Shown in pieces: positions 32,899-54,015 of a stretch of 64,000 bases of DNA. Below the pieces are notes generated by a model that saw only the letters and a list, made by a program, of their open reading frames with translations, was not told the DNA's origin and did no database searches. The DNA comes from Candidatus Doudnabacteria bacterium (GTDB lineage: Bacteria; Patescibacteriota; Doudnabacteria; UBA920; O2-02-FULL-48-8), in assembly GCA_016182875.1 (NCBI GenBank), contig JACPFQ010000004.1, positions 259,515 to 323,514 of the forward strand, read 5' to 3'. The translations under genes were made by a program, and so were the position numbers. The number at the start of each line of letters is the position of its first letter. Position 1 is the stretch's first letter.

Positions 32899-33354
32899 AT
32901 GAGCAAAGCCAAATTTGTAGTGTTTAGCCTGGCTTTCATGCTGGTGTTCGGCATGTGGGGGCATGCCTCTGCGGCCGTCGTGATTATGCCGGGGGACCTT
33001 GTCAAAACACAAAACAGTTCAGTGGTCTTCTACATGGACGATGCCAAACAAAATCTACCGCTGGATGCTTCTGGGTTTGCCATCAGATATGGAAGCGACT
33101 TCAGTAAAATAAAAATTGTGGCTGAGTCTGACATTAAACCTTACACCGGGCACAATTTTTTGAACCGGATGCTGTCGGTGCCGGAAGGAAGCCTGATAAT
33201 GTATTATCCGGACCCAACTGTGTATCTGGTCAAGAATGGCATGAAGCAGCCGTTCACCTCCTGGCAGGCGTTTACCAGCAGGGGATATAAGTCGTCTGAC
33301 ATCAAGCTTGTCGGCACGTATCACGTTTACGCCACCGGCCCAAATTTGAACTAA
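32899..33354 (+). CDS. secreted protein carrying two copies of the roughly 45-aa module shared with the giant surface proteins
   Basis: Signal peptide; TVYLVKNGMKQPFTSWQAFTSRGYKSSDIKLV matches the repeat found in ORFs 35045, 44307 and 46882. Confidence 0.5.
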   Translation: MSKAKFVVFSLAFMLVFGMWGHASAAVVIMPGDLVKTQNSSVVFYMDDAKQNLPLDASGFAIRYGSDFSKIKIVAESDIKPYTGHNFLNRMLSVPEGSLIMYYPDPTVYLVKNGMKQPFTSWQAFTSRGYKSSDIKLVGTYHVYATGPNLN

Positions 33355-33359
33355 GTAAA

Positions 33360-33390
33360 AAACCGCCGGCAACCCGGCGGTTTAAGTTTG
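33360..33390 (+). terminator. rho-independent terminator
   Basis: accgccgg caac ccggcggt followed by a T-rich tract. Confidence 0.5.
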
Positions 33391-33436
33391 TCTAATTTTT
33401 GGTGTAATTACGCTATTTGTTAGACACAAGGCATTC

Positions 33437-33470
33437 GGTACCTAAAATAGCCATGGCTAATATAGGTACC
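33437..33470. repeat. 34-bp perfect palindrome ggtacctaaaatagccatggctaatataggtacc (copy 2)
   Basis: Paralog of 11031-11064. Confidence 0.6.
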
Positions 33471-33523
33471 AGTCGTGTTGTTTTGCCTTCTAATCATATT
33501 ATTAATTCTCTAGCAAATTTTAC

Positions 33524-33659
33524 TGGTCGGGGTGCTGGGAATTGCCGCCTCACTTCGTGAGGCGAGCCACGCCCATCTTCGATGGGCGGGAACCCGTCTA
33601 TCCCGCACCAAAAGCTTCGCTTTGGTATGGGGCATGCCTGCTCTTCAGCCTGAAATTTT
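33524..33659. other. partial duplicate of the tRNA-Pro 3' end (22 bp) followed by three UUCG-capped hairpins
   Basis: tggtcggggtgctgggaattg versus tRNA 3' end tggtcggggagccgggaatcg; hairpins gcctcac-ttcg-tgaggc, cgcccatc-ttcg-atgggcg, ccaaaagc-ttcg-ctttgg. Confidence 0.4.
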
Positions 33660-33733
33660 TGGTCGGGGAGCCGGGAATCGAACCCGGTCTATCTGCTCCC
33701 AAAGCAGACGTACTACCGGTATACTACTCCCCG
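33660..33733 (-). tRNA. tRNA-Pro (anticodon TGG)
   Basis: 74 nt with encoded CCA; acceptor CGGGGAG/CTCCCCG; anticodon loop TTTGGGA; T-arm CCGGG-TTCGATT-CCCGG; flanked by inverted repeat agcctgaaattttt / aaaaatttcaggct. Confidence 0.85.
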
Positions 33734-33897
33734 GAAAAATTTCAGGCTGCCTACCAGGCGTATTTACCCCGTAGTGAACCGAAGGTTCTACTACGGGGCT
33801 ACCGGTATACGACACCCCGCCTTCGCTAAAGCTTCGGCGGGCAAGCCCGTTAGATGTCACAAAAGCCTACGCAATATTATATGTTATACTGGCACTT

Positions 33898-34500
33898 ATG
33901 AAAAGAGTTTGGGAATTTTATAGAGACCTGCTTTGGCAGAATAGGGGAGTGCTGCGGAAGGTGATAATTTTATTTCTCGTATCAATTGCCGCGGGAGCGG
34001 TGCTTTTTTTCTATGACCAAACACTGCTTGATAAAATTGTTGCTATGTTCGAAGAAAAATTCGGAGCGGATAGAGCGCTTGACCTAAGTTTGGCCATAGA
34101 TATTTTCAGGCAAAATCTTATAGCCTCGCTTATAGCGCTAATCGGCGGAGTCATTTTGGGTATTACTCCGGTACTGCTGGTGGGCCTCAACGGACTCCTT
34201 TTGGGCTATGTAGTGACTTCGATATTTGTTTTGATGCCGGGAAGTATAATGGATAGCCTTACTTTTGCATCTAAAGGACTTCTGCCCCATGCGATATTTG
34301 AGGTTCCAGAATTTCTGATTGTTTCCGCGTTCGGTTTAGTACTCGGTACGCGCTGGCTTAAGAGAGAATCAGCTGGGAAGCGAAAACAGGTTTTGAAAGA
34401 AGATTTTATAAAGGCGTTAAAAATTGTGCCGTTAGCTATTATTTTGCTTATAGCGGCAGCCTTGGCAGAAGTTTTTGTTTCGGGAAATTTAATAAAATAA
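33898..34500 (+). CDS. SpoIIM / DUF95 family membrane protein
   Basis: 200 aa polytopic; LPHAIFEVPEFLIVSAFG motif. Confidence 0.6.
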   Translation: MKRVWEFYRDLLWQNRGVLRKVIILFLVSIAAGAVLFFYDQTLLDKIVAMFEEKFGADRALDLSLAIDIFRQNLIASLIALIGGVILGITPVLLVGLNGLLLGYVVTSIFVLMPGSIMDSLTFASKGLLPHAIFEVPEFLIVSAFGLVLGTRWLKRESAGKRKQVLKEDFIKALKIVPLAIILLIAAALAEVFVSGNLIK

Positions 34501-34562
34501 AGGTTTTGTTGATAAAATGTGAATAAGTTAATTTTATCTATCTTTGCCTATCAATAACCTTG

Positions 34563-34679
34563 TGGAGCGGGATGCGGGAATCGCCCGGTCATTCGATCCG
34601 GTCATGCGACCGGACTGCTTGACCCCGTCGAATGACGGGGCCGGGCGTCAGGTCGGATGACCTGACGAACAGCACTTCT
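34563..34679. other. partial duplicate of the tRNA-Gly 3' end followed by a hairpin-rich insert
   Basis: tggagcgggatgcgggaatcg versus tggagcgagcagggggaatcg; small palindromes ccggtcattcga... Confidence 0.4.
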
Positions 34680-34753
34680 TGGAGCGAGCAGGGGGAATCG
34701 AACCCCCGGCATCAGGTTGGAAACCTGAGGTATTGCCACTATACGATACTCGC
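34680..34753 (-). tRNA. tRNA-Gly (anticodon TCC)
   Basis: 74 nt; acceptor GCGAGTA/TGCTCGC; anticodon stem TCAGG/CCTGA with loop TTTCCAA; T-arm CGGGGG-TTCGATT-CCCCC; CCA encoded. Confidence 0.85.
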
Positions 34754-34834
34754 ATTAAAAGCCTAAAGCACAAGATATACTAGCAAAATACCTAGCCTTT
34801 TTCAATCCCGCACCAGATACTGGTGCGGGATTGC

Positions 34835-35044: not shown

Positions 35045-38000
35045 TTGATTGTCTCATATGAACAATTAATCCTAATTCAGGAAAGCACTTATAAACAGGA
35101 GATAATAATGCACACTAGCGAATTAACTCTCACTGCGCGAAAAGGCATTGCACTGGGTTTGGCTGTTTCCACTTTGCTGTGGGCCGCCACTCTTTGGGCA
35201 CTGCCTGCTTTTGTTTCCGCAGCACCCCACTCTGATGGTTGCTTGATCAACTCATCCGGCACCATTTATCTGGTCACTGGCGGTCAAAAGAGAGGTTTCC
35301 CGACCGCTGAAGTTTTTGCCTCACACGGCTACAGCTTCAGCCAAGTCGTGGCTGCCTCATCCGAAGACACTCAAGCCATGGGTCCGGTAATGGTTTACGC
35401 CGATGGGACATTGGTCAAGGGCCCGTCTGACCCTCTGGTCTACTTGGTAGCCAACGGTCAAAAGAGAGGCTTTGTGTCTGGCTCGGTCTTTACCGGTCTT
35501 GGCTTTAGCTTTGCCAGTATCGTGACTGCCGCCACCAACACTTTTGCCGATCTGCCAATGGGCGCCAACCTCGAGTCCGCTACCGAGCGCCACACAGCTG
35601 GCGTCTTGGCCAAGGATTCAACCGGCACTGTTTGGCAAATGACTGCCACCGGCCGAAAAGGCGTTCCTTCCATGGAAGTCTTTAACTCCTATGGCTGGTC
35701 ATGGTCCAATGTGGTTGCTGCCAACGCTGCTGACACTGCCGCTGCGAATGAAGGCGTAGTTGCCGCCCGAGCATCCTGCTCAACCGGCGCCACACCTCCT
35801 CCTCCGCCAGCAGGCACTATGTCAGTCAGCCTTGCTTCCAACAACCCTGTTGCCGGCACAGTAATTGCCGGCCAAGGTGTGGCAGATCTTGCTCACTTTA
35901 GCTTCTCAGGCTCTGGTAAAGTAACCAGCGTTGTCTTGAAGCGATTGGGTGTATCATCCGACACCACCTTGTCTGCAGTTTATCTGTATGACGGTTATGT
36001 CCGATTGACTGATTCTGCCACCGTTTCTTCTGGCACCATCACTTTCAACAACACCGCGGGACTCTTCACCGTGGCAGGTTCCAGAACAGTCACAGTGCGC
36101 TCCAACATCGCGGCCAGTACATCCGGCCAGACTGTGGGCGTGCAATTGTTCTCAGCCGCGGCTGACGTCGGCACCGTGTCAGGCTCTCCGCTTTCCGGAA
36201 ACATGCACACTGTGGCTGCCGCTCCAAGCAACTTCGCGACTGTTGACTTTAATGCCACTACCACTCCGTCCAATGCCACAATCTCACCGCAAGATGATTA
36301 CACCATGTGGCAGAACGTGGTCACGGTGGGCAATACCAAAGTCAGATTGTATGCGTTCAAACTGCGACAAGTTGGTTCAGTCGTAGCTTCAGATCTTCAG
36401 AACTTTGATCTGTTTGTTGACGGCACCAAGGTCGCCTCAGTTGCGGCTTTGGATTCCGAAGGCTATGCCAACTTCGATCTTTCAGCCGCTCCGGTCACAC
36501 TAGAAACCGGCTCTAGAACGATCAAGATGTTGGGCGACATAATTGGCGGTTCCAACCGCAACTTCGCCTTCAGCTTGCGCCAAGCGGTTGATGGCTTCTT
36601 CGTGGATAACGACTTCAACCAGGGAGTCCTTCCGACCGCTGCCAGCGCCACTTTCTCGGCGCGCGGCAACACCGATGATAACTTGCAGACGATTAGCACT
36701 GGCACCATCACCTTCACCAAGCGGGCTGATTCCCCGTCCGGCAACGTCGTGAATGCCGCCTCCAATGTTTTGCTGGCGAAATTCGACGTCAAGGCTGCGG
36801 GTGAATCCATGAAGGTGGAAACCCTTCGCGTGCGAATTGATGATGACGACGGCGACGAGATGACCCTGCGCAACGGCGCTTTGTATCTCGACGGCGCTCA
36901 GATCGGCTCCACAGCCGCCATTTCCGGCGACACCGGCACCGACCCTGACTACACCGAATACACCTTCGGCTCATCGTTCATCGTGGTCCCCGGCACCCCG
37001 CGCGTGCTCGAAGTCAAAGCAGATATCTTTGACAATGACGGCACCAACAGCGTGGCTGCCAGCGACACTTACCAGGTGGAAATCATTGGTTCGGCCAACG
37101 TCCAAAGATTGACTTCATTGGGCTACGTTTCCGCTCCTTCGACCGCAGCCGAGGCCAACACCTTGACTGTGGCCACGGGTTCGCTGACCGCTGCTCTTGA
37201 TACTTCACTCGCTAATCACACGATTGTGGCTCCTAAGTATGGCTACATGATTGGCAAGTACACGATCCAGCAAACGACCACCGAAGGCGCCAACATCACC
37301 AGCGTTGTCGTTGACTTCGACGAAAAAGCTGATGCCTTTGATGGCTCAGACGACTTAACCAACCTCTACATTAAGATGGGCTCTTACACCTCGCCCATCA
37401 AGGCGACAGTCACGGATACGGGCAATACGTTCTCAACCAATGTCGCGATTGCTGCCGGCCAGGTCATGGCTCTGGAGGTTTACGCCGATGTTGCTGCTTC
37501 CGCCACCAATGGTGACGGCACAGCCGACACGATTGAAAGCTCGGTAACCGTGGCTTCCACCACTACACAATCCAGCACCTCTGCCACTGCCGACGAAGTT
37601 GATGGCCAGACCATCACAGCCGGCGCCGGCACGTTTGCCACTGCCGTGGCTCCTGACACACCAGTCAATAGGATCACTTATGGCAACCAGGAAGTGGAAG
37701 CGGCCCGATTCAAGATCACTGCCACCAATGAGACCTACACTCTGCGCCAGTGGAACATGAAGGTTGGCGCATCGCCAATCTCATCCGCTATCGTGGAAGC
37801 CAGGCTCTACTATGGCTCGACCTTGCTCGGCTCCGCTCCATTCTCTGTCACCAGCAACACAATTGCTCAAATTACTGGGCTTGAGTCTAAGGCTGAAGCC
37901 GTGGTTGCGGCCAATACCAGCAGGACCTTCTCGGTCAAGCTGCTGCTCAACCAAATCGGCGGAAACTATGGCACTTCCCAGCAAAACGTGGCTGTCACTT

Positions 38001-38773
38001 CGGATGCTTTGATCATCCAGGACAGCCAGGGAGTCCAAGATTCCACCTCATCCGCAGTCACCACTGACCGCGTGGGCAATGAATTGTACGTCTATAAGGG
38101 CACGCCAAAAGTTGAGGTTGTCGATCTGACAAATTCGACCTTGGTCAACGGTTCGGCCCAGGACGTCTACAAATTCAAAGTCACTGGCCAGGGCGGCACG
38201 GTAGCTGTCAAACAGGTTAAGCTTTCTGTGGCTTGGTCTGATGGCGGCACTGCCGACACCCTGGAAGTGGAATCATTGAAGTTCTACAAGAACGACGTTG
38301 ATATCACGGCGAGCGTGACTATGGTTGACGAAGACGGCAATGATGTGGAAACCACCTCCGGATTGACTGAAGATGACGACACACTGGTTGTCACCTTCAC
38401 CACCGAAGATGCCGTGGCTGCCGGCGAATCCGTGACCTACCGGGTCCGCGGCACGCCGCAAGCCTTCCGCGCCACCGGCACTGACACCGTCGGCGACAGT
38501 GTGTCCTTCAATGTCCCGTCTGATGCCAGCCACAACGGCACCTCAGTCTTCTTAAATGACCAGACTGATATTAACGCCGGCCAGTCCGAAATCATGGAGT
38601 TGTTCACTTCCGCCGCCGCTTCATCTAGCGATGGCACTGCTGCCAACTTCATCTGGTCCGACAACTCGGCAACCGCACACGTTTCAACCGCCAATGCCAC
38701 CAGCACTGGCGACTGGGCGAACGGCTACAATGTCCTCAACTTGCCGCTCGACGGCGAGACTTGGACAAAATAA
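35045..38773 (+). CDS. giant secreted surface protein (about 1220 aa; probable start MHTSELTL at 35108) with four N-terminal 45-aa modules and Ig-like beta-rich repeats
   Basis: Signal peptide; repeated G(T)xYLVxxGxKRGF...VFxSxGYSFS module four times; T/S/A/V/G-rich beta-strand repeats. Confidence 0.75.
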   Translation: MIVSYEQLILIQESTYKQEIIMHTSELTLTARKGIALGLAVSTLLWAATLWALPAFVSAAPHSDGCLINSSGTIYLVTGGQKRGFPTAEVFASHGYSFSQVVAASSEDTQAMGPVMVYADGTLVKGPSDPLVYLVANGQKRGFVSGSVFTGLGFSFASIVTAATNTFADLPMGANLESATERHTAGVLAKDSTGTVWQMTATGRKGVPSMEVFNSYGWSWSNVVAANAADTAAANEGVVAARASCSTGATPPPPPAGTMSVSLASNNPVAGTVIAGQGVADLAHFSFSGSGKVTSVVLKRLGVSSDTTLSAVYLYDGYVRLTDSATVSSGTITFNNTAGLFTVAGSRTVTVRSNIAASTSGQTVGVQLFSAAADVGTVSGSPLSGNMHTVAAAPSNFATVDFNATTTPSNATISPQDDYTMWQNVVTVGNTKVRLYAFKLRQVGSVVASDLQNFDLFVDGTKVASVAALDSEGYANFDLSAAPVTLETGSRTIKMLGDIIGGSNRNFAFSLRQAVDGFFVDNDFNQGVLPTAASATFSARGNTDDNLQTISTGTITFTKRADSPSGNVVNAASNVLLAKFDVKAAGESMKVETLRVRIDDDDGDEMTLRNGALYLDGAQIGSTAAISGDTGTDPDYTEYTFGSSFIVVPGTPRVLEVKADIFDNDGTNSVAASDTYQVEIIGSANVQRLTSLGYVSAPSTAAEANTLTVATGSLTAALDTSLANHTIVAPKYGYMIGKYTIQQTTTEGANITSVVVDFDEKADAFDGSDDLTNLYIKMGSYTSPIKATVTDTGNTFSTNVAIAAGQVMALEVYADVAASATNGDGTADTIESSVTVASTTTQSSTSATADEVDGQTITAGAGTFATAVAPDTPVNRITYGNQEVEAARFKITATNETYTLRQWNMKVGASPISSAIVEARLYYGSTLLGSAPFSVTSNTIAQITGLESKAEAVVAANTSRTFSVKLLLNQIGGNYGTSQQNVAVTSDALIIQDSQGVQDSTSSAVTTDRVGNELYVYKGTPKVEVVDLTNSTLVNGSAQDVYKFKVTGQGGTVAVKQVKLSVAWSDGGTADTLEVESLKFYKNDVDITASVTMVDEDGNDVETTSGLTEDDDTLVVTFTTEDAVAAGESVTYRVRGTPQAFRATGTDTVGDSVSFNVPSDASHNGTSVFLNDQTDINAGQSEIMELFTSAAASSSDGTAANFIWSDNSATAHVSTANATSTGDWANGYNVLNLPLDGETWTK

Positions 38774-39100: not shown

Positions 39101-39419
39101 ATGAGCTATTTGTATAATAATTTAAAGCTTAAAAACTTCAGGCGTAAACTAAGAAGCAACCAGACAGACTGTGAAGCCTTGCTCTGGTCTGTGTTGCGAA
39201 ACAAGCAATATAGGCAATTATATCTTAGATTTCTTTTGTCCTAAATTAAGATTGGGAATTGAGCTTGACGGTGGTCAGCACGCCAAGCAAAAACTCTACG
39301 ACAACCAGAGAACCAAATATCTTGAATCACAGAATATTAAAGTCCTTAGATTCTGGGATAACGAGGTGCTTGAGAATCTTGAGGGAGTTTATCAAAAGAT
39401 CTTAGATCATTGCCTCTAA
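39101..39419 (+). pseudogene. DUF559 endonuclease-domain protein disrupted by an internal deletion or frameshift (two frames)
   Basis: MSYLYNNLKLKNFRRKLRSNQTDCEALLWSVLRNKQ (frame 2) then IGNYILDFFCPKLRLGIELDGGQH...KVLRFWDNEVLENLEGVY (frame 0). Confidence 0.7.
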
Positions 39420-39717: not shown

Positions 39718-39981
39718 ATGTCCATAGTTAAAGTCAAAAATAAATACCAGGTGACTTTGCCCGCTTATGTCCGCAAGCAAGCCGGAATCGAAATTGGGGA
39801 TATTTTGGAAGCAAAAATTGAAAACGGTAAAATTATGCTTTCACCTCAAAGCACGATTGATAAGAGATTAGCCAAGGCGCTCGAAGAGATAGAGAAGGGC
39901 CAGACTTATGGACCCTTTGATACTGCAGAAGAAATGATCACAGCTCTTCATCGCGAGGTAAAAAAACTTAAGCGAAAGTAG
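39718..39981 (+). CDS. AbrB/MazE/SpoVT-type antitoxin
   Basis: 87 aa; KYQVTLPAYVRKQAGIEIGDIL swapped-hairpin motif. Confidence 0.65.
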   Translation: MSIVKVKNKYQVTLPAYVRKQAGIEIGDILEAKIENGKIMLSPQSTIDKRLAKALEEIEKGQTYGPFDTAEEMITALHREVKKLKRK

Positions 39982-39988
39982 AGTTATA

Positions 39989-40234
39989 ATGAGGCTTGAC
40001 TTTTCGCCTAGTTTTGTGAAAGCCTACAATAAGGCTCCCACAAAAATCCAGCGAGCATTTGACAAACAATCAAAATTGCTTCTTCAAAATTTAAACTACC
40101 CTTCATTGCGCGCCAAGAAATACAGCGAGACAGAAAATATCTGGCAAGCGAGAGTTGATAAATCTTGGCGGTTTTATTTTCGCATCAAAGGCGATGTATA
40201 TTATCTACTTGATATTATTTCTCATCCTAAATAA
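39989..40234 (+). CDS. RelE/ParE-family toxin
   Basis: 81 aa; WQARVDKSWRFYFRIKGDVYYLLDIISHPK C-terminal RelE-like motif; 8-bp gap from the antitoxin gene. Confidence 0.6.
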   Translation: MRLDFSPSFVKAYNKAPTKIQRAFDKQSKLLLQNLNYPSLRAKKYSETENIWQARVDKSWRFYFRIKGDVYYLLDIISHPK

Positions 40235-40989: not shown

Positions 40990-41388
40990 ATGGTTTTGCC
41001 CAAAACAAAGCTACGCAGAGAATTAAGGCATAATTCAACTCCAGCGGAAAAAGTTTTCTGGGCTATGATTTGCGACAGAAAAGTATTAGATCTAAAATTC
41101 CGCCGTCAGCACAGCATCGGGCCTTACATAGTTGATTTCTACTGCGCGGCACTTAGGTTAATTATAGAGATTGACGGCGATACTCATGGAACTGTTGAGG
41201 GAATTAAAGCTGATAAAAAGCGAACCGCTTATTTAGAATCACTGGGCTATACTGTCCTAAGATACGCAAATTCAGATATACTAAATAACCTTGAAGGAGT
41301 ATTCCAGGATTTAACCAGCAAGCTTCAGAAACTACTGCCTAATTCCACCTCCTCACCCATCCTCTCCTCCTTGCAGGAGGAGAGGTGA
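40990..41388 (+). CDS. DUF559 endonuclease-domain protein (intact)
   Basis: 132 aa; EKVFWAMICDRKVLDLKFRRQHSIGPYIVDFYC..LRLIIEIDGDTH...GYTVLRYANSDI family pattern. Confidence 0.8.
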   Translation: MVLPKTKLRRELRHNSTPAEKVFWAMICDRKVLDLKFRRQHSIGPYIVDFYCAALRLIIEIDGDTHGTVEGIKADKKRTAYLESLGYTVLRYANSDILNNLEGVFQDLTSKLQKLLPNSTSSPILSSLQEER

Positions 41389-42438: not shown

Positions 42439-44151
42439 GTGTTTGTTGATAAGTCTCAAAACCACAAATTATTAAGGACAATCAATCAAAATATGAAATA
42501 TTTCAAAAATTTTAGCCGGCAAAAAGCCTTGATGGTCTCAGTGCTTGCGCTGGCTTTCTTGGTGGTTGCCGGCGGAGCCTTTGCCGCTCTGACGTTTACC
42601 GCCACTACCACCTCCAGCGACGGCGCTTTAACGATTAGTTCCGCCACCACCAATGCCATAAGTTTGGATTCCGGCACCACTGGCGCTGTCAATCTTGGCA
42701 CTGGCAATAATGCCAAGACCATCAGCATCGGAACCGGCACTGCAGGCAACACCATTAACGTTGGCACGGACAACACTACTCTTGATGCTATTAACGTAGG
42801 TTCAGCCCTGGATACTGTGATCATAACCGGCACAAGCGCAGGATTATCTAAAATTGAGTTGGCGGCAACTCGCCCAACCGGCGCTACGAGCTCTTATCAA
42901 ACACTTGCTGGCGATCTTAACTACGTAGGAGCCGCGGGCGGTACTGGCACATATCACGCTGGCGTCATGGGCAACTTTTTGGGCGATACTCTGACCAACG
43001 CTAATGCCACTATCCACGCCGGCACAATCGGCAAGTACTCTGTGACCACGAGCGACGCTTTGGTTGGACCAAAAGCAGGCTTGGTTGGTGAAGCGGAAAC
43101 TAGCGTTGCCAATGCCGCAGTGATGGCAGTGCTTGGCGGTGATACTGCGACAGTTGCTCCTGGAGCGGCTTATGCTGTCCGTTATCTCAACTCTACGGCA
43201 GCTTCTAAGTTCACTTACGGTCTTGATCTCTTCTCCGCGGCTGTCGGCGGTTACAAGGCCGTTGATTACGGCACAGCCGATATCCGACTTCAAAACGGCG
43301 AGACGATTAGCAACGCCACTGACGGCGCAATCACCATCAGCGGCGCGCTTACTGGCACACCGGCAGTGCTTTCTACTACCACAGCCGGCGGAGGGAGCAA
43401 CCTTAAACTGCAATACAAGCAGATAACCAATGCCTTAACTGGCGACTATGAAGGTTTGCATGTCAGAGTTTCCACTGATGTCGGCTCAGCCGATAATGCC
43501 GTTAACGGCGCCCAAATCAAAGCCGTGGCTAATGACGTGGCTTCCCAGATTGACGTTGAAATTCTCCGCGGCGTTTACACCAGCGTGGATGCCAAAGACA
43601 ATTTGGTCACCACTGCTCGCGCGTTTGAAGCATCACTCGATGGTTTGCCCGGATCAACAATCACCGAAGCCGTAGGCATTGAATTGATGAACAACTCTTC
43701 TGGTGCCCAAACGAACTCCTATGGGCTATCCATCAACGGTGGTACAGCTTCCGGTCATAAAGCATACACAAGAGATATTCGATTGCAAAATGGCGAACTC
43801 ATTGACAACGCCACGGATGGCACGATAGCTTTCTCTGGAATAATTGCGGCAAACGGCGGTTTGGTTCAAAGGTACACGACTAATGCTAATGTTCCAAATG
43901 CGTCTGGCCAAAATGTGATTAGGCTTAACGCATTAGCAGCTGACTTTGCCACGATCGCTGGCGGTACCGCAGGCCAAATTATTACCATCATTTTCAGCGA
44001 TGCAGTGGTGGTGACTGACGACAACGCCAACGGCGCCAATGCGATAAATCTGGTAGGTAGCGCTAACCTTACATCTGCTGCTGATGATGTACTTGAGTTA
44101 GTATTTGACGGAACCAGCTGGTTTGAAGTTTCGCGCTCAGTGAACAACTAA
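42439..44151 (+). CDS. secreted Thr/Gly/Ala/Asn-rich repeat protein (probable start MKYFKNF at 42493)
   Basis: Signal peptide; low-complexity TGTGAVNLGTGNNAKTISIGTG-type repeats. Confidence 0.6.
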   Translation: MFVDKSQNHKLLRTINQNMKYFKNFSRQKALMVSVLALAFLVVAGGAFAALTFTATTTSSDGALTISSATTNAISLDSGTTGAVNLGTGNNAKTISIGTGTAGNTINVGTDNTTLDAINVGSALDTVIITGTSAGLSKIELAATRPTGATSSYQTLAGDLNYVGAAGGTGTYHAGVMGNFLGDTLTNANATIHAGTIGKYSVTTSDALVGPKAGLVGEAETSVANAAVMAVLGGDTATVAPGAAYAVRYLNSTAASKFTYGLDLFSAAVGGYKAVDYGTADIRLQNGETISNATDGAITISGALTGTPAVLSTTTAGGGSNLKLQYKQITNALTGDYEGLHVRVSTDVGSADNAVNGAQIKAVANDVASQIDVEILRGVYTSVDAKDNLVTTARAFEASLDGLPGSTITEAVGIELMNNSSGAQTNSYGLSINGGTASGHKAYTRDIRLQNGELIDNATDGTIAFSGIIAANGGLVQRYTTNANVPNASGQNVIRLNALAADFATIAGGTAGQIITIIFSDAVVVTDDNANGANAINLVGSANLTSAADDVLELVFDGTSWFEVSRSVNN

Positions 44152-44306
44152 GCTTAACCCCGCCTCGCCTTGGCTCGCTAAAGGGGTAGAGCACAAGCGT
44201 AAAGCTTTGGCTCTACCTCCCCTAACCCCTCCTATTCTAGGAGGGGAAAAAACCAAGAGGCGAGTCTAGGCAGGCAATCCTAATCATTAATCATTATGCC
44301 TAAAAT

Positions 44307-45980
44307 ATGAAACACTTATATAAGGCACTCGTGAAAGCATCGGCTTTGGGATTGGGCATAAGCTTAGCTCTGTCTAGCGTGGCGTTTGGTGCGGCTGATT
44401 TGAACTGGTCCGTAGATACGACCGTGACCATCAATTCGGTAAACTTCATCATCAGCGGCAATTCCGAAGCGACTTCCATGATTGTGGGGGCAACGACGCT
44501 TACCGTGACAGTCCCTTCCGGAAGTGAGTTTAGGCTCAGGTCCGTTGACCGCCGTCCCTTGAACAACAACCAAAGTCTGGCTCAGCAATGTTCTGTTTCG
44601 GACAACGTCCTGCCAGTGGTCGGCCCCAAAACCAGCGTAGTTATAACACCTGACACCTCAACCACCTGTACCACCAACTATCCGCCGTCAGGCGGAGGCG
44701 GTGGCGGCGGCGGTGGATCACCCAGCCCAAGCCCAACTCCTACACCGACACCGACCCCCACGCCTACCCCGACTCCTACACCAACCCCTACTCCTACTAG
44801 CACCACTGGCACTGTGAATGCCACGCCAGAAGCCGGCGGGTCCACCAGCTTCACGCCAACCGATACTGCCACTCCACAAGCCAGCGTTTCACTGCCGGCC
44901 AATTCTGTCTCTTCCACCACTACAGTGACGGTGACTAACACCACTTTGGCCAGCGAAGGCATTACCCCAGCGCCTTCAAGCGGCGGGGCCACTGCCACAG
45001 TCGGCGCTCCTTACGAAGTCACGGCCACTGCCGCTAGCGGTAGTGCGGCCAGCTTTAGCCAGCCGGTCACGCTGACTTTTACCTATACTGACGCGCAACT
45101 GCCGTCGGGTGTTTCTGAATCCGATTTGGTGGTCATGTATTTTGACTCTACTTCCAATTCTTGGGTGACCCTGCCAACCTCGGTCAATGCCAGCACCAAT
45201 ACGCTGACGACCACAGTCACGCACTTTACCGTGTTTGTGATCGCGGCCAAGCCGGGCGGCTCGGGCACAGTTGGCGCGCATGCCAATGGCACCCTGATTT
45301 TGGACGGGCAAACCGTGTACCTCATCAAGAACGGTCAAAGAATTGGCTTCCGCAATGAACAAGAATACCTCTCCCACGGCTACAAATTCAGCCAAACCGT
45401 GACAGCCTCTGCTGCAGACAAAGCTCTGCCCGCAGGCGTGATCCAAAAAGCCATGGAAGGCACACTGGTGCTGGATTCTTCTGACAACCGTACGGTATAT
45501 ATGGTTGGCACAGGTGCGACCAAGCGCGGGTTTACCACAGCTGCGGTGTTTACCGGCCTGGGCTATAATTTTGCTAATCTGCCCAAGATCAATCTTTCGG
45601 ATTATCCAGCCGGCAGTCCGATCGGGACTACCACCGAAGTCCATCCGGACGGCGCCCTGGTTTTGGAAGGCAAGACAGTCTGGTGGATTCGCGGCAATGC
45701 CCGGCAGGGATTTGAGAGCGAAGCCGTGTTCAACACCTACGGCTTCTCATTCGGCAAAGTGGTCGCGTCCAATTCCTCGGATCTGGCGCTGGCCCAAGGC
45801 GCGCTGGTCAAATTCCGCGACGGGACATTGGTCAAGGACGGAGCAGACTACTACCTGGTCTCGGACGGCAAGAAGCTGAAATTTGCTTCTTCAGCTGATC
45901 TAACTGCCAAGGGATATAAGACTTCCAACGCAATCAGCGCGTCTCTGTCCGCCTACGAATCCGGCGGCAATGTGCAATAA
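44307..45980 (+). CDS. secreted surface protein: N-terminal beta domain, PT linker, four C-terminal 45-aa modules
   Basis: 557 aa; [22 protein letters not shown] linker; C-terminal 250 aa about 75% identical to the C-terminus of ORF 46882. Confidence 0.7.
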   Translation: MKHLYKALVKASALGLGISLALSSVAFGAADLNWSVDTTVTINSVNFIISGNSEATSMIVGATTLTVTVPSGSEFRLRSVDRRPLNNNQSLAQQCSVSDNVLPVVGPKTSVVITPDTSTTCTTNYPPSGGGGGGGGGSPSPSPTPTPTPTPTPTPTPTPTPTPTSTTGTVNATPEAGGSTSFTPTDTATPQASVSLPANSVSSTTTVTVTNTTLASEGITPAPSSGGATATVGAPYEVTATAASGSAASFSQPVTLTFTYTDAQLPSGVSESDLVVMYFDSTSNSWVTLPTSVNASTNTLTTTVTHFTVFVIAAKPGGSGTVGAHANGTLILDGQTVYLIKNGQRIGFRNEQEYLSHGYKFSQTVTASAADKALPAGVIQKAMEGTLVLDSSDNRTVYMVGTGATKRGFTTAAVFTGLGYNFANLPKINLSDYPAGSPIGTTTEVHPDGALVLEGKTVWWIRGNARQGFESEAVFNTYGFSFGKVVASNSSDLALAQGALVKFRDGTLVKDGADYYLVSDGKKLKFASSADLTAKGYKTSNAISASLSAYESGGNVQ

Positions 45981-46002
45981 GCCAGATAACACGTAACAAA
46001 AT

Positions 46003-46036
46003 AAAGCGGCTCTATTTGGGAGCCGCTTTATTTTGA
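46003..46036 (+). terminator. rho-independent terminator
   Basis: aaagcggctc tatttgg gagccgcttt followed by attttg. Confidence 0.6.
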
Positions 46037-46102
46037 GGTCTTGTGGATTGACATATAACTTTAAGTTATATATTATATATACTATCAATTAACCATTGAA
46101 GT

Positions 46103-46378
46103 ATGACTACGCAAGTTATCTTTAAAGTCGATAAAAACCTTAAAGCCAAAGCCATGAAAAAAGCTCAAAACGAAGGCATTGCTTTTTCCTCTATTCTTAA
46201 GCTGGCCACGCAGGCTTACGTCAAGGGGAATTTGAATGTCGAGTTGGTAACGCACCCCAGGCTTAATGCTAAAACTCGCCAAGAGCTTATCAAAGCTTCT
46301 AAAGATATCAAGGAAGGGAAGAATTTAGTTGGACCTTTTAAAACAGTTGAAGAAATGAAAAAGTATCTGATGAAGTAA
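46103..46378 (+). CDS. RelB/DinJ-like antitoxin
   Basis: 91 aa; immediately upstream of a RelE-family toxin with a 2-bp gap. Confidence 0.55.
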   Translation: MTTQVIFKVDKNLKAKAMKKAQNEGIAFSSILKLATQAYVKGNLNVELVTHPRLNAKTRQELIKASKDIKEGKNLVGPFKTVEEMKKYLMK

Positions 46379-46380
46379 GT

Positions 46381-46641
46381 ATGGAGCCATTTTTACACAA
46401 GAGCTTCAGAAAACAGTTTGACAAACTTCCTCCGAAAGTTCAGCAACAATTTTTCAAAAGACTTGATTTGTTTTTGAAAGATCCATTCCACCCGATATTA
46501 AATAACCATTCAGTGGACGCAGTTTATCCTAATTGGCGCAGCATAAATATTACCGGAGATTACCGTGCGCTTTATGAACTAAAAAGTGAAGATATTTTTG
46601 TGTTTATGAAGATTGGCACCCATTCAGAGCTGTATGAGTGA
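46381..46641 (+). CDS. RelE/StbE (YafQ-like) family toxin
   Basis: 86 aa; ...ITGDYRALYELKSEDIFVFMKIGTHSELY C-terminal signature. Confidence 0.7.
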   Translation: MEPFLHKSFRKQFDKLPPKVQQQFFKRLDLFLKDPFHPILNNHSVDAVYPNWRSINITGDYRALYELKSEDIFVFMKIGTHSELYE

Positions 46642-46881
46642 TCCACAGTTTTGACATAAATTTTATAATATACTACAGTTTAGGCACAAAAGCCTTGGGC
46701 TTTTAAGAAAGCAAAAACAATTAAATCAAAGGTGAAAAACAAAACTTTGCAGGGATTGTTAGGGTTTTTCCAAACTGGAAGTCCAACTGCCAATGTTTTA
46801 TTTGTCACCAAAAAACTGCAAGCAATGACGCGTTTGATTGGGTCGAACACAGACGCGTCTTTGTTTTAGAAAGGAACAAAC

Positions 46882-49800
46882 ATGAATACAAATATGCTTT
46901 ACGTGCGGTTTGAAAAAGTCGTTTACTGGTTTTTAATAGTGGCCATCGCCATCTGGGCATTTGGCCCGGCGGCACTCCTGCCGTTCGCGCAAGCGATCGT
47001 CACCACCACCATCACGGATCTGACCCCGCAATTCGGCGGGCAGCGGCTAAAAGCTTCCAGCAACCCGACCGCGGTGCTCAAAGTCCAGTTCGGCTCGGAC
47101 TCCAACGGCGAAACTTTGACTTCTATCAAGGTCACATTTGCCTCGGTTACCGGTTGTACCGGTTGCTGGACTTCCGGCGCGGCCACTTCTTCCGAACTTG
47201 CCGATCTGGCAGCCGCGGCTGATGGCGCAGGCGGCATCCAGCTTTGGAAAGACGCGGGTGCCGCGGGATTCCAGGGAACAGGCGTTGATACGCAAGTCGC
47301 TTTGACCGCCACCCCGCAGTACGCTTCGGCCACGACTTTTATCCTCAATCCGGCTGTTGATCCGACATTGACGACTGATGATATTTATTTCGTTGTTTTG
47401 AAAACCAAGTCTGCACCCACTAACAATAATGCTTTTACTATTGGCGTGGCCGCTGACGGCGACATTGTCACCTCGGCCAACAACCCAATCATCACGCCGG
47501 TGACCAGCCGGACGATCACAGTTGATACTGCGGCTCCGACTTTGACTGCGGCCATGAGTAATCCTTTGACTGCCGCGACCGGAGTGCCGATCAGCACCAC
47601 CCCGCACATGACTTTCTCGGAAGGCGTGGACCAAACGACTCTAATCCCTGCCAACATCACCCTAACTGCTGGCAGTGCCGTAAATGGTGCCATCCGCGCA
47701 TTTCCTGATGGATTTGATTTTATCGTTTCCAGCGCCCCTACTTATACGGCCAGCACCAGTTTTACCAAACTTAGCATTGTCTCTACCGCTTTCTTCCAAA
47801 TCGCAGGAACTAACCCCATAAGTCCGCAGGGAACTTATACCGCACCGGTGGTTGGCGACATTGTCATGACCCAGAGAGAAACTTTTCCAGCAGAGCTGGG
47901 ACTGGTCACGGATGCCACTTTGACTTCCGGCACTTTTGCCGTCAATGGGTTTGCAGGGTTTGCGCCGATGCAGATCACCAAAATAGCCACTCCTGCTGCC
48001 ACCGGCGCGGTGAGCGCTTCGACAACAGTTAATGTGGGTGACATCATAGTGGTTAATACTACTGCCAATCCTACTGATAGCCGCTACAATTGGCACATGG
48101 TCACCACAGGCGTGTCCGCAGCGGCCTTAAACGGCGGCGCATTAAGACTGGACGGCAATGGATCCGCCCCAACTTTTGCTGCCAGTTCCAGCTTCTCAAC
48201 CATCGCCCCGGCCGGCACAGCAACTGACAATGGCGCCACCAATGGCGGAAAGCTGGCAGTCGTGGTTGGCGACTTGGTATTTGTAAAAATCGGGGCAGGT
48301 TCTTATAGCTGGCATCAAGTGACTACTGCTGGCGATCTTTCCTCTGACGCCACGGAAAACACGGCGTTTATAGACGATGGCGCGGCTGATCCCGGAATTG
48401 CCGCTAGCAGTCAAATGAGCAAGATTGCAACTGCTGCCAACGGGGCGGTAACTGACACTGCAACTGTCTTTGCTTATGGAGACTTGGTGTTTGCCCAGAC
48501 CACAGCCAATGCCGCCAATAACAATGCTTATAACTTTCACATTGTGACTAATGGCGCTACCGGAGCAAACTCTACCAGCCTGCGATTCGACAACGCTCCA
48601 GGCAGCTTGGCGACTTCCACTGCCCACACCTTGACTATGACCACTGGGATTAAAGATTTAGCCGGAAACGCTTTGGCTACAAACCAAGTCATTACCTTTA
48701 CTACGGGCGGCACCGGCGGGACCAACACCACGCCGCCATTTGTCCAATCCTCCCAGCCGCAGTCCGGCAGCCAAACCCATGCCATTGGCGCGCCCATCAG
48801 GCTGACGTTTAGCGTGGACATGGCTGCAAGCGGCGGCGGGTCAATTCTTGCTGATGCCAACATAGGTTTGTTTACCGATGTCAACGGCGCTCCTGGAGTC
48901 GCTGTGACTACTACCAAAGCTTATGACTCGGCTTCCAGAACAGTCACCCTGACTCCTGCAACGCTGACTGCTGCAACCGGGTATGTGGCCAGGGTCAATA
49001 CCACTGCCACTTCCACTACGGGAACTGCTTTAAACAGTCCGAGTACGCAGCCTTATTTCTTATTCTTCAAGACCGCTTCCGGGGCCGCTGATACCGCGGC
49101 ACCAACCGTGCAAGGGGTCTCTCCGGCCACTGGCTCAACCGGGGTTAGCATGAGCACGGTCATTAGCGCGGGATTCAGCGAAGACATTGATCCTTCGACT
49201 GTCTCCACAACTACCGTGACGCTTGCCAAAACTACGCCCCTGACTGCGATTACCGGCAATGTCAGCTACAATTCGGCCAGCAGATCCGTTAACTTTACCC
49301 CTTCAACAGTGCTTGAAGCCACCACCGGCTATACCTTTACCATTGTCGGCGGAGCAAGCGGGATTAATGATTTGTCGGGCAATGATTTGGCCGCAAACTT
49401 TACTTCAACTTTCACGACCACTGGCACAGCCGACAATGTCCTGCCGAAAGTCTCATTTGCCGCGGCTGACGACTTTGGCGTAGCCATAACCTTTAACGAA
49501 ACCATGAAAACCGGCGGCGGGCCTAATGCTGCGGACAACATTGTCAACTACAGCTTGCAAAGCCCGACTGGCTCTTCCATTTCTTTAGGCGGCAAAACCG
49601 TGACTTATGATTCCGCCACCAAAACCGCGCGCATCTCAGGACTTAGTTTGCAAAACGGCAATACCTTTAAAGTTACGGTCAATGCTCCCACCCAGGATTT
49701 GGCTGGCAATGGCATGGATACTACTGGCACGCCGGCTAACAACACGGCTTTTGGCACGGTCCAAAATTCCACCACCACGGGAGGAAACTTGGGCCCTGGC

Positions 49801-52800
49801 TCAGGCACGATTAACTTTAGCCAGCAGGGCATGAACCCAACCAGGGTGACTCCCATGAACCGGGCGGCGGGAGCGACCAGCAATTACAAAGCGGAGTTTT
49901 TGGCCGCGACCTCTGTGCCTTCGGGCGGCAAGATTGTCCTGACTTTCCCAGCCGGCTTTACCGTAACCAATGCCGCGGCAGTGGCCGCAGCGAGTAGCTT
50001 CTGCAACGCTGATTTAAACGGGCCAGGCATTGGCGCTGTCACCATCGCCGGTTCTCTTGCCAACGATAACGCGGCCGGAACCATCACCATCACCACCGGC
50101 GGAGATGCCACAGGCGCCAATGCTTTCTTGTGCCTGGAGCTTTCCGGGATTGTCAACTCCACGGTTCCCAACACTGCCGGCTACACCGTTGACATCAAAA
50201 CCCGCGATACCGCGGCCAACAACCTCGCAATCTTGGAAACCAAAACTGCCTCGCCGTTCTTTTTGGGACAAACCGGTTCCCGCACACTCACTGTTAACGT
50301 CTTCAACGACAACGGCGCGGGAGTCGGCGGGGTAGCCAATGACAACATCAAAAATGGATCAGAAGCCGCGATTGCCAATGCCAAAGTCTTCTTGTTCTCG
50401 CCGTCCGTGGGAGGACAAGCAGGCACCACTGACGTCAATGGCCAAACGACATTCACCAGTTTGGCAGACGGCGAATATATGATCGGCCTTGAGCCGGCCT
50501 CGGTGGGCGGCGGCGGGTTTGCGCTTAATTCCGCGCCCCAGCCGTTTACTCTCTCAGCTTCCAGCTTAACCAAAAACTTCGGCTTGCGCGCAGCCCCCTA
50601 TACAATTTCCGGCACTGTGGCGGGACCTAACGGCACAATTGTAGATGTGTTTGCTTCCTCACCTAATGGTTTTACCAAGACCACCATAACTCTCTTGGGC
50701 TTAGGCACGCCTGTTGCCTATTCTTTGCCGGCGCAGGACTTGACCACTTACAACGTGGGCGTAGGCCCAACCATGCCGGAAGCGTCTCTGCGGCCCGGAG
50801 CCCCGCCGCCGCCGCCGCCGACAGCCACTGATAAGACCATTGCCGGCACCGTGGTTGATTCATCCGGCGGCGGAATTTCCAATGCCGGCGTGTTCTGCCG
50901 GCCTTCGGAAAGCTCTACCGGCACTTCTTCCGGCTTTGGCACGGGTGGCATGACCAACACTTCCGGCGCCTTTACGCTTAATGTTACTACCGGAGTTTAC
51001 CTTTGCGGAGTGTTCAAACCCGGCATGCCGCCGGCTCCGGAAAAGCAAATCACGGTGGGCGCTGCCGCTAATACCCCAACTAGCCTGGCCTTTATCATTG
51101 ACGTGGCGACCACGCTGACAATTTCCGGAACTATCAAAGATGACAGCGGCAACGCCATCCCGTATGCCGGAGTCAGCGGCCGCAAAGTTGTTTCCACCAC
51201 CAATACCACGCCAGTCGGCGGCGATTCCAGCAACTTTGCCGGCGGCCCGACAGACGCCAATGGCGCTTACACCCTCTATGTGACAACCGGCACCTGGGTG
51301 GTGGAAGCCTTCGCTCCCGGCTTTGGCAGATTGGGAACCAAGACAATCACGGTCGCTGCGTCAAGCTTAAGCGGCCAGGACTTTTCTGCTCAAACCTTAA
51401 GTATCGGCACGATTACCGGTTCTGCTACCAGGGATAGCAGTCCGGTGCAGGGAGTCATGGTGCGGGCAGAAAGTAGTAGCGGCGGCAATATGGGAGTGAC
51501 AGATGCTGCTGGGGCTTATACAGTTAAAGTTCCGGCCGGCACTTACACCATCACTTGTTTCTTCCCGGGAGTCGGCGAAAGCACTCCCATCACGGGAGTT
51601 GTCGTGACATCAGGAAATACCACCGCCGCGGGAGCTTGCGCGCTGGCTGCCCCGATTACTATTACCGTCAACGTCACTGACGGCACCAATCCGATTACCA
51701 ATGCCGGCGTCGAGGTGCGCGATCCTGTCACAGGACGCGGCAACTTTAGTTCGACTTCTACCACTTCAGGCGTGAACGCTGTTTATACCGTGGTCGTGCC
51801 TCCTGGCACCTACAATGTGCGCGCCGGGCATCCAGCCTACGGCAGCGTGGGCCAAACCGCCAATGTCAGCACAACGCAAACTATTACTTACAATGTCGGC
51901 AGCTCCAAACAATTATACGCGGTGACCGGCACAGTCACGGGAGACGCAGTGGCCCTAAGCGGCGCCTGGGTGTCATTAAACGGCACTCCCACCGGGGCCA
52001 CGAACACTGTTTTCTTGGGCGCCCAGACCATTGCCAATGGCACATTCACCATCAATGTCCCGCCAGGAGCTTACAGGATTAGGGCGGACAAGCCGGGTTA
52101 TAAATCGCCGGCAGAAACCGCAGTCACCGTCACTGGTGCCGCAGTGACTGCCGGAACCATTGCCTTAACCACAGCCGCTCGGACCATTGCCGGAACAGTG
52201 ACTTTGGACAGCGCTGGCATTTCCAACGCATTTGTGGATGCTACAGATGGCAATGGCGGTTATGCGGTGGCTCAAACCAATGCCTCAGGCGCTTATACCT
52301 TGAACGTTGACAACGGTACTTGGACGATTAGAGCGCACAGCCAAGGCTATGAAGGTGGTCCCTTGCCAGTGACGGTCAGCGGGGCCAATGTCACTGGCCA
52401 AACTATTACGCTTTCAGCTATTTCAGGCTTTACCATTACAGCTGAACGGCCCGAGACCGTGACCCCGACTGCCGGAGGATTTATCGGCAACACCGACATT
52501 GGCACGCACTTCCAATTGGAAATTCCGGCAAACGCGCTAGGCACTGGTTCCAATGCAGCAACCGTGACGACCAAAGTCAACACAGCCATGCCCAACCCGC
52601 CAACCGGAACGATCCTAAACAAGAATGCAGTGACGATTGATGCCGTGGATGCTTCGGGCCAGCCCATCTCAAGCTTGAATGATGAGATCACGATTACGAT
52701 TCCTTATACGCAAGCTGATTTGCCAGCCGGCACTTCCGAAGAATCATTGGTTATCGGTGTTTGGAATGACGCCACGCAAACTTATGATACGCTTTCAACG

Positions 52801-54015
52801 ACGGTTGACACGACCCTAGATACTCTAACCGCCACAGTTTCTCACTTGTCAGACTTCGCGCCGTTAGTTTCATCCGGCGGCTCTCCGCCAGCTACTCCGA
52901 CCAATCTGGCGGCCAGCAATACCGGCGATGGCGCCTCGGTCAGGCTGACTTGGACTGAAGTCTCGGGAGCTACCAGCTACAACATCTACCGCTCCACTGA
53001 CAATTCGACTTTCCCACTGCTGGCCAATACCGCCCAGACCACCGGAGCTTATAATGCCACCAGCTTAACCAACGGGACGACCTACTACTTCAAGATTAGC
53101 GCGCAGAACTCAACGGGAGATGAATCAGCCGCCACTTCTGCGGTAACAATCACTGTCGCTGCAAGCGGCGGAGGCGGTGGTGGAGGCGGCGGCGGAAGTG
53201 CTGCTCCGGTAAGCCCAACCCCGACTCCCACGCCAACACCTACTCCGATCCCAACGCCCACTCCAACACCGAGTCCGAGTCCGACTCCGACTCCCGCTCC
53301 CAGCGGAGCGCACTCAAATGGAACATTAGTCAACGACAATGGAACAATCTATCTGATTAAGAGCGGCAAACGAATCGGGTTTAGGAACGAAGCTGAGTAT
53401 AAATCTCACGGATATAATTTCGGCCAGGCAGTAGCCGCGAATGCTCAGGATAAAACCCTTCCACAAGCGGAATTTGTCCAAAAAGCTTTGGAAGGAACCT
53501 TGGTGCTTGATGCTGCTGACAACAAGACCATCTACATGATTGGCTCAAATGGCACCAAGCGCGGGTTTACGTCTGAATCGGTGTTCAAAGGCTTGGGATA
53601 TAACTTCAAAGACATTCCCAAGATCAATCTGTCGGATTATCCGCCAGGGCCCCCTGTTGCTGATTCAGCGCTTACTCACCCTGATGGCGCCTTGGTCCTG
53701 GACGGCAAAACTGTCTGGTGGATTCGAGGCAATACCCGCCAGGGCTTCGAGTCCGAAGCGGTGTTCAACACTTATGGCTTCAAGTTTTCCAACGTCACTA
53801 AAGTCAACCCAGCCGACAAGGCTTTAGTCGAAGGCCCGCTCGTCAAGTTCCGTGACGGGACCCTGGTCAAAGACGGAGCCGATTACTACCTGATTTCCGA
53901 CGGCAAGAAGCTCAAGTTTGCTTCCACTGCCGACTTGACTGCCAAGGGCTATAAATCATCTAACGCGATTAGCGGCTCATTGGGCAGTTACGAGTCAGGC
54001 GGCGGTGTGCAGTAA
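46882..54015 (+). CDS. giant S-layer-like surface protein (2377 aa): signal peptide, Big_5/SbsA-Ig-like, CarboxypepD_reg-like and fibronectin type III domains, PT linker, four C-terminal 45-aa modules
   Basis: DTAAPT... Ig-like repeats; repeated GTY.I.A..PG(Y/F) modules; [34 protein letters not shown] Fn3 motif; C-terminus paralogous to ORF 44307. Confidence 0.75.

Follow-up and report, generated by a model that had tools for sequence, protein, structure and literature searches.

The closest described counterparts of the repeat module examined here are the repeats R1-R4 of EccB, a core component of the type VII secretion system (T7SS/ESX; Pfam PF05108; PDB 4KK7, 3X3M, 5CYU, 6SGY and 7NPS). 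EccB1 contains four repeat domains of 50-57 amino acids (aa), which consist of a 4-stranded sheet and two helices apiece and pack pairwise around a core, and its repeat 1 weakly resembles the wall-binding subunit PlyCB (PMC4769845). We analyzed a stretch of 64,000 nucleotides (nt) from Candidatus Doudnabacteria bacterium (contig JACPFQ010000004.1, positions 259,515 to 323,514), hereafter the window, in which four predicted secreted proteins, encoded by open reading frames (ORFs) 32899, 35045, 44307 and 46882, carry tandem copies of a module predicted to have the fold of an EccB repeat. The organism belongs to the Patescibacteria (CPR, candidate phyla radiation), a group that accounts for much of bacterial diversity, has few cultured members, and for which envelope building and decoration and host attachment are poorly understood. 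We consider it reasonably likely that the tandem modules serve as a non-covalent cell-wall-binding anchor, which would work much as SLH domains do without being related to them.

Classical wall-binding modules are the second point of comparison. SLH, CW_binding_1/2, LysM, SH3b, PG_binding_1 and SPOR resemble the window module in being short units that occur in tandem at a terminus of secreted proteins, in being common to surface-layer or adhesin proteins and peptidoglycan hydrolases alike, and in often standing behind low-complexity linkers that precede the cargo. They differ in fold, as the window module is assigned to the EccB repeats and the SLH fold is another one, and the module regions gave no Pfam match to SLH (PF00395), CW_binding_1/2, LysM, SH3_3, SH3b, PG_binding_1 or SPOR even at E ≤10. 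The likeness is therefore one of functional analogy and not of family membership.

Repeats were excised by eye from the four ORF translations, aligned and used to build a hidden Markov model (HMM), which was searched against all stop-to-stop fragments of 40 aa or longer (782 from the six frames of the whole window). This resulted in 13 copies (Table 1), two in ORF 32899, three in ORF 35045 and four each in ORFs 44307 and 46882, and no other fragment scored better than E ~1. Because this first HMM had been built from the copies themselves, two independent checks were made. An HMM made only of modules from outside the window recovered 12 of the copies at i-Evalues of ≤1.8e-11, including A1, A2 and A3 of ORF 35045 (1e-20, 1e-18 and 4e-16) and B1-B4 of ORF 44307 (5e-19 to 1e-13), and with this HMM, too, the other fragments among the 782 stayed at E ~1 or worse. 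In the second check, HMMs built from one ORF detected copies in other ORFs, and an HMM of ORFs 44307 and 46882 found the three copies of ORF 35045 (1e-17 to 4e-9) and the second copy of ORF 32899 (4e-9). The thirteenth copy, S1, which is the first of ORF 32899, reached an i-Evalue of 0.01 with the non-window HMM and was missed by the HMMs built from other ORFs. S1 is strongly divergent, with 11-20% identity to the other copies, and its motif G-D-L-v-k-T...V-Y-y-i-D...R-Y-x-x-D-F-x-K-I-K is kept in both homologs of the ORF 32899 protein.

The translations and the HMM of foreign sequences bear out an earlier reading of this DNA, made from the sequence only, which had placed the module in all four ORFs and at the ends where we find it. 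Two of its details required correction. The unit is 55-63 aa long instead of ~45 aa, the shorter consensus spanning the conserved core only, and ORF 35045 has three copies where four had been counted: a fourth was sought by HMM and was absent even at E 10. The counts of four in each of ORFs 44307 and 46882 and of two in ORF 32899 were right. Spacers between modules in the window measure 0-5 aa, such that the modules are contiguous and no core domain lies between them.

All four N-termini, when inspected by eye, show a basic stretch followed by a hydrophobic stretch and then A-x-A, and are signal-peptide-like; we predict Sec signal peptides on this basis. For ORF 35045 the ATG at 35108 is the likely start, which gives a signal-peptide-like N-terminus. 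The product of ORF 32899, which is 100% identical to hypothetical protein HYV13_03190 of Candidatus Doudnabacteria bacterium, has no domain beyond the signal peptide and the modules. In ORF 35045 a run of five prolines (P5; 35795-35809) follows the module block, and the remaining ~980 aa of the protein gave no Pfam match. In ORF 46882 a G10 and PT run (53167-53304) stands directly before the block, while the G9 and PT run of ORF 44307 (44691-44807) lies ~157 aa upstream of a block that is immediately preceded by KPGGSGTVGA only. The proposal that PT or poly-G linkers always separate the modules from other domains is thus borne out by ORF 46882, applies in a loose sense to ORF 35045 and fails for ORF 44307; in ORF 32899 there is nothing to separate. 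Within the large surface-protein genes (36000-38000 and 44000-54000) G+C is 0.54-0.58 with a negative GC skew, compared with ~0.46-0.48 in the flanks; this elevation probably reflects the Ala/Gly/Thr/Pro-rich composition of the proteins and not foreign origin.

AlphaFold2 (AF2) was used to model the four-module block of ORF 44307 from an input alignment of 43 sequences. The model had a predicted local distance difference test score (pLDDT) of 96.9 and a predicted template modeling score (pTM) of 0.89, indicating that the four modules are predicted to pack as one compact body. In each module a three-stranded beta-meander is predicted to lead into a helix, after which come a fourth strand and a further helix (strand-strand-strand-helix-(3-10 turn)-strand-helix). 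A Foldseek search of the PDB with the block returned EccB1, EccB5 and EccB3 as all of the top 10 matches (best E 4.6e-5, probability 0.99). The global template modeling score (TM) of the block against EccB was only ~0.2, which shows that the repeats match EccB and that their arrangement does not. For a single-module model (83-sequence alignment, pLDDT 78) the five best PDB matches were again EccB5 and EccB1, with TM 0.57-0.63, a root-mean-square deviation (rmsd) of 2.4-3.8 Å and 19-23% identity, at E-values that are not significant alone, as expected at 57 residues. Among predicted viral structures the best match was a 115-aa protein of Rhodococcus phage Weasels2 (A0A1I9SA71), whose superposition on a pair of modules gave TM 0.77 and rmsd 2.4 Å. 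Resemblances to beta-propellers, hemopexin, BamB and TcdA CROP were discarded as noise (TM 0.09-0.16, probability ≤0.28). Structure prediction had been proposed as a check on the module, and its outcome is a confidently modeled block with the EccB-repeat fold.

The window module and the EccB repeat are alike in unit size (50-60 aa), in the 4-stranded sheet with two helices and in the order of secondary structure elements in the AF2 models. Both can occur as four repeats per protein, and both lie, in the case of the window module by prediction, on the outer side of the cytoplasmic membrane in a monoderm-type or mycolate cell. The proteins that carry them differ. EccB starts with a cytoplasmic segment followed by a transmembrane helix, whereas the window proteins have cleavable-looking signal peptides; a central beta-sheet core is inserted between the EccB repeats, whereas the window modules form a contiguous tandem; the window proteins carry unrelated cargo domains; and EccB is encoded in ecc loci. 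On plasmids, for comparison, eccB lies between eccA and eccC, and no ecc or ESX genes were present among the annotated neighbors of the module genes in the window. We conclude that the window proteins are not EccB, as they lack the transmembrane N-terminus, the core domain and the ecc neighbors.

Pfam and NCBIfam scans of the four full-length window proteins found nothing on the module (Pfam at E ≤0.1), and the same scans recovered Big_5, CarboxypepD_reg and fn3 in ORF 46882. ORFs 35045, 44307 and 46882 had no match to a Pfam S-layer family. A family that did match was phrog_9616 (PHROGs v4, annotated as unknown function), with E-values of 1.8e-8 for the block of ORF 44307, 6e-10 for that of ORF 46882 and 5.4e-7 for that of ORF 35045; ORF 32899 fell below the threshold and gave no match. 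The 118 positions of phrog_9616 equal two modules, and its members are two-module actinophage proteins such as BillNye gp190 and Weasels2 A0A1I9SA71, which share the stand-alone format of ORF 32899 and differ from it in being phage-encoded, with no annotated function. The module has therefore been clustered before, yet without a name or a function.

Below the Pfam threshold, the best match of the ORF 46882 block was to PF05108 (EccB; E 0.03) and covered profile positions 400-461, which correspond to R4; it scored 13.4 bits, where the cut-off is 27. No window protein passes the gathering score of PF05108, which is passed by multi-copy relatives, two among 50 members of the module family. When the module profile was compared by hhalign with the EccB proteins of five plasmid-borne eccB genes, it aligned in the same register with EccB positions 421-477, again R4. 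Profile searches of PDB sequences, made with module profiles and with the 16-copy protein P0097, gave nothing significant; matches to designed 'Pizza' and Kelch-type propeller sequences were dismissed as sums of insignificant repeats. The sequence link is weak but consistent, and the module and the EccB repeat unit are probably distantly homologous. Literature searches with 'EccB-like' and with Patescibacteria together with cell-wall-binding domains found no paper describing the module. Since the fold is known from EccB and sequences of this kind were already in phrog_9616, the module is not categorically new, and the novelty first claimed for it comes down to its lacking an assigned function, a name and a family of its own. 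What appears to be undescribed is its use as a stand-alone tandem module, in the form of a widespread terminal anchor on patescibacterial surface proteins and on wall enzymes of Patescibacteria and Actinomycetota. This leaves a gap in the databases, as neither Pfam nor NCBIfam offers a model for the module by itself and the sole family that contains it, phrog_9616, is annotated as unknown.

We compared the blocks with one another. The C-terminal blocks of ORFs 44307 and 46882 share 72% aa identity over 236 aa, close to the ~75% over ~250 aa given previously. Their DNA is 68% identical with a longest exact common word of 17 nt, and 92 of the 161 codons that differ are synonymous. The two blocks are old paralogs under purifying selection. 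With this DNA identity and so short a common word the blocks are a poor substrate for homologous recombination, and recombination between them, suggested by the sequence-only reading, appears unlikely. Identity from module to module inside one block is only 20-33%, while equivalent positions of the ORF 44307 and ORF 46882 blocks are 64-87% identical, and A1-A3 of ORF 35045 correspond position by position to block modules 1-3 at 40-43% identity. Low identity within a block and high identity at the same position indicate that the block was duplicated and moved as a whole, with each position distinct. Modules at positions 1 and 3 usually begin with His and those at position 4 with F/L-R-D-G, and the pattern H-x-H-R is found in 87 proteins. 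ORFs 44307 and 46882 have a second element in common, an 80-aa domain (37% identity, E 1e-6; Table 1) that gave no Pfam match.

The distribution of the module was determined by a HMMER scan with the module profile of 1.84 billion cluster representatives (50% identity). The scan matched 5,198 proteins at E ≤1e-3, 2,530 at ≤1e-10 and 502 at ≤1e-30, with 2 to 16 copies per protein. Among the 142 top matches the commonest layout was four copies at the extreme C-terminus (60/142), followed by three copies at the N-terminal end with the first before residue 130 (20/142); these are the two layouts present in the window. Elsewhere, module sets are also internal or make up whole small proteins. Named members come from Doudnabacteria, Portnoybacteria, Wirthbacteria, 'Saccharibacteria'-labelled and Parcubacteria metagenome-assembled genomes (MAGs) and from Actinomycetota, and the closest homologs of the block from Doudnabacteria and other Patescibacteria. 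A homolog search with the short module profile alone gave 13 short proteins only, and a related-loci search with a trimmed 9-sequence block alignment gave 37 genome loci. Conservation in orthologs, on which the module had been staked beforehand, is thus seen at these 37 loci and in a gene order shared with another Doudnabacteria MAG. Among distant matches, P0082 (226 aa, named 'ribonuclease HI' by JGI) combines a single module with RNase H/RVT_3, which is odd for an extracellular module; a fusion of gene calls or a chance architecture may account for the pairing.

Fusion partners were examined in two sets. In the first, 50 diverse members picked by hand for having more than four copies or N-terminal copies, such that the counts are not frequencies, SpoIID was present in 14/50 and Amidase_2 in 8/50, with both on one Portnoybacteria protein; PKD, PA14, CAP and cohesin also occurred. 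Source names in the family include 'SpoIID/LytB domain-containing protein [Actinomycetota]' and 'N-acetylmuramoyl-L-alanine amidase [Patescibacteria group]'. The second set, 50 further members with a C-terminal block of four, contained fn3 (9), Big_7 (6), CarboxypepD_reg (5), Polysacc_deac_1 (4) and Peptidase_S8 (2), as well as PD40, FG-GAP, DUF285 and Ig-like cargo. In phages, tblastn with an actinobacterial module pair as the query found two-module proteins in 31 Streptomyces phage records, and in Streptomyces phage BillNye the module gene is close to that of the holin, two genes downstream of the one for a minor tail protein of 2,027 aa. The same type of search with the window block against 50,697 phage records gave no match. 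The predicted architectures make it clear that one terminal module is combined with a wide range of unrelated extracellular cargo, three classes of wall-acting enzyme among it, in two phyla and their phages.

The prevalence of the extreme C-terminal block on unrelated secreted proteins, the commonest layout at 60 of 142 top matches, would also be expected of a C-terminal sorting or secretion signal comparable to a T9SS CTD or to PEP-CTERM/LPXTG-like signals, which an export or attachment machinery would recognize and which would then be removed or covalently linked. We regard this as highly improbable: the block is ~235 aa long and contains four folded domains, far above known sorting signals in size; modules also follow the signal peptide (ORF 35045 and 20 top matches), sit internally or form small proteins; and the annotated parts of the window yielded no dedicated gene of sortase or exosortase type.

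Our preferred interpretation is instead that of a wall anchor, because the N-termini are signal-peptide-like, the module is terminal, its cargo is diverse and relatives fuse it to peptidoglycan enzymes. In such an arrangement the proteins would be exported by Sec, the module block would bind peptidoglycan or a wall-linked glycopolymer, and the flexible Pro/Thr/Gly linker would let the arrays of Ig-like, fn3 or CarboxypepD_reg domains face outward; wall enzymes of relatives would be positioned on their substrate by the block. The anchor may come in several formats, with three modules behind the ORF 35045 signal peptide, a rigid C-terminus of four modules in ORFs 44307 and 46882, and the two modules that make up ORF 32899. 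Envelope anchoring had also been the suggestion of the sequence-only reading, and context (terminal site, diversity of cargo, peptidoglycan-enzyme fusions) speaks for it, whereas its comparison with SLH and CW_binding repeats survives as a functional likeness only, given the absence of a Pfam match. We find nothing specific to support the S-layer-like coat that accompanied this suggestion, as the same block is present on enzymes and on many unrelated adhesin-like arrays.

Several observations weigh against the anchor interpretation. For this module, the support for direct wall binding is contextual and consists of the fusions to SpoIID, Amidase_2 and Polysacc_deac_1, the first two of which were counted in the hand-picked set. 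Binding of peptidoglycan by the EccB1 repeats has been suggested, and the authors state that no data stand behind the suggestion (PMC4769845, 2016). The EccB repeats pack on each other and on the core, so a structural or oligomerization role is possible. PlyCB (PDB 4F87; a subunit of the streptococcal phage C1 endolysin PlyC), to which the link is second-hand through the EccB1 paper, was outside the top 50 Foldseek matches of the block and single-module models alike. The bridge to EccB itself is thin: the hhalign alignment had a P of 0.0011 and a probability of only 20%; EccB1 appeared in the PDB profile search with R1 and R4 as the matching repeats, at E 0.24-0.33; and the PF05108 score of the 16-copy P0097 (39.3 bits, E 4.2e-10, cut-off 27) adds up numerous weak matches to repeats, in which no single stretch is significant.

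A role in protein-protein assembly is another candidate. The module would then be a rigid scaffold that oligomerizes or docks on an envelope protein, such as an S-layer lattice or the pilus machinery, much as the EccB repeats do in the periplasmic ESX assembly, and would have no glycan ligand. The prediction of four modules as one compact body (pTM 0.89), the pairwise packing of EccB1 repeats through their helices with a continuous hydrophobic core (PMC4769845), and the membership of the best-matching EccB5 chains in the periplasmic assembly of the ESX-5 complex are all consistent with this role. However, recurrent fusion to peptidoglycan enzymes in two phyla is more simply explained by substrate targeting, the range of 2 to 16 copies is typical of avidity-based glycan binders, and no conserved partner gene was found beside block-bearing genes except for other block-bearing genes. 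We therefore consider an assembly module distinctly unlikely.

Glycan binding could also be directed outward, at a host or prey. The wall glycans bound by the module would in this case belong to a different cell, such as one on which an epibiotic patescibacterium lives, with the giant proteins acting as attachment factors and the amidase and SpoIID fusions as weapons against the host wall. The two-module proteins of Streptomyces phages, encoded near tail genes, fit recognition of a foreign wall, and Patescibacteria are widely inferred to be episymbionts (PMC13059738). In addition, the module genes of the window are directly upstream of a type IV pilus cluster (Table 1). This order is conserved in the related Doudnabacteria MAG, in which a small block-protein, a giant block-protein (>2218 aa) and a 187-aa ORF are followed by 606-aa and 409-aa ORFs that occupy the PilB and PilC positions. 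On the other hand, a module that adjoins the signal peptide, or that ends the protein and is set off by long linkers, is in the usual place of an anchor and not at a distal tip, the very diverse cargo, which includes subtilases and deacetylases, fits a generic anchor better, and free-living Actinomycetota carry the module on SpoIID/LytB proteins. A host-directed adhesin is thus an unlikely account of the module, although it has more in its favor than assembly or sorting.

Returning to the wall anchor, we tentatively raise a broader possibility, to which we give less credence than to the anchor itself, that the module is the main non-covalent wall anchor of Patescibacteria, an as yet unnamed functional counterpart of SLH, is used as well by Actinomycetota and their phages, and that the EccB repeats derive from the same wall-binding domain. 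If this were true, the suggestion that EccB binds peptidoglycan would become a concrete and testable prediction, and the module would offer a functional hypothesis for the EccB repeats of mycobacterial ESX systems. A portable module that marks thousands of secreted proteins, from giant adhesin-like proteins to peptidoglycan hydrolases, would help to predict the surface proteome, and the module would be a candidate affinity tag for capturing or labelling Patescibacteria cells.

Table 1. Positions in the window of the module-bearing ORFs, their modules, a shared domain and the adjoining type IV pilus genes.
Feature	Position	Strand	Description
ORF 32899	32899..33354	+	151-aa predicted secreted protein; predicted signal peptide aa 1-25 (...HASA|A), two modules
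Module S1	32986..33162	+	ORF 32899 aa 30-88; divergent; i-Evalue 0.01
Module S2	33178..33351	+	ORF 32899 aa 94-151; i-Evalue 6.6e-15, non-window HMM
ORF 35045	35108..38773	+	1221 aa; signal-peptide-like N-terminus (...AFVSA|AP), three modules, P5 linker
Block A1-A3 (ORF 35045)	35228..35767	+	A1 35228-35398, A2 35399-35575, A3 35591-35767; N-terminal
ORF 44307	44307..45980	+	557 aa; predicted signal peptide, N-terminal domain, G9+PT linker, middle domain, four-module block
Block B1-B4 (ORF 44307)	45279..45977	+	45279-45452, 45453-45629, 45642-45815, 45816-45977; C-terminal
ORF 46882	46882..54015	+	2377 aa; Big_5 x4, CarboxypepD_reg x6, fn3, G10+PT linker, four-module block
Block C1-C4 (ORF 46882)	53311..54012	+	53311-53487, 53488-53664, 53677-53850, 53851-54012; C-terminal
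80-aa common domain	~45020-45260 (ORF 44307 aa 238-319); ~52630-52880 (ORF 46882 aa 1919-2001)	+	just upstream of linker or block
PilB/T2SSE	54819-56564	+	type IV pilus cluster (54819-61967), directly downstream of ORF 46882
PilC/T2SSF	56658-57890	+	type IV pilus cluster
Two pilin-like ORFs	57890-58273, 58273-58914	+	pilin N-methylation motif
PilM	60411-61067	+	type IV pilus cluster
PilN	61380-61967	+	type IV pilus cluster

The window looks like ordinary chromosome, with genes for ribonucleotide reductase, HisRS, ComEC, Fpg, GroEL and NusB, and among and around the module genes are those for a lamin-tail domain (LTD) protein, SpoIIM, tRNA-Pro, tRNA-Gly, a TPR protein and a PaaX-like protein. 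The LTD protein (30363-32522, + strand) has 720 aa and four lamin-tail domains (E 4.7e-67), is encoded just upstream of ORF 32899, does not carry the module and is probably another surface protein. Also without the module is a Gly/Ala/Thr-rich protein of 570 aa, probably secreted, that has a hydrophobic segment near its N-terminus and is encoded between module genes (42439-44148, + strand); its match to the C-terminal beta-sandwich of a phage depolymerase is weak and below threshold (E 0.0014). Toxin-antitoxin-like genes on the + strand comprise a pair of MazE-type antitoxin and ParE-like toxin (39718-40231) and a pair of an unassigned 91-aa ORF and a ParE/YafQ-type toxin (46103-46638), the latter exactly between genes 44307 and 46882. 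Two DUF559 ORFs (endonuclease-like, MTES_1575-related) are found on the same strand at 39171-39416 and 40990-41385, of which the first is truncated and matches the C-terminal two thirds of the profile only. Far upstream, an AdoCbl-II (B12) riboswitch aptamer (1391-1445, - strand), which exceeds the gathering score at 42.8 bits, is separated by a few kb from the ribonucleotide reductase gene (4788-7388, + strand), which encodes a TSCPD domain.

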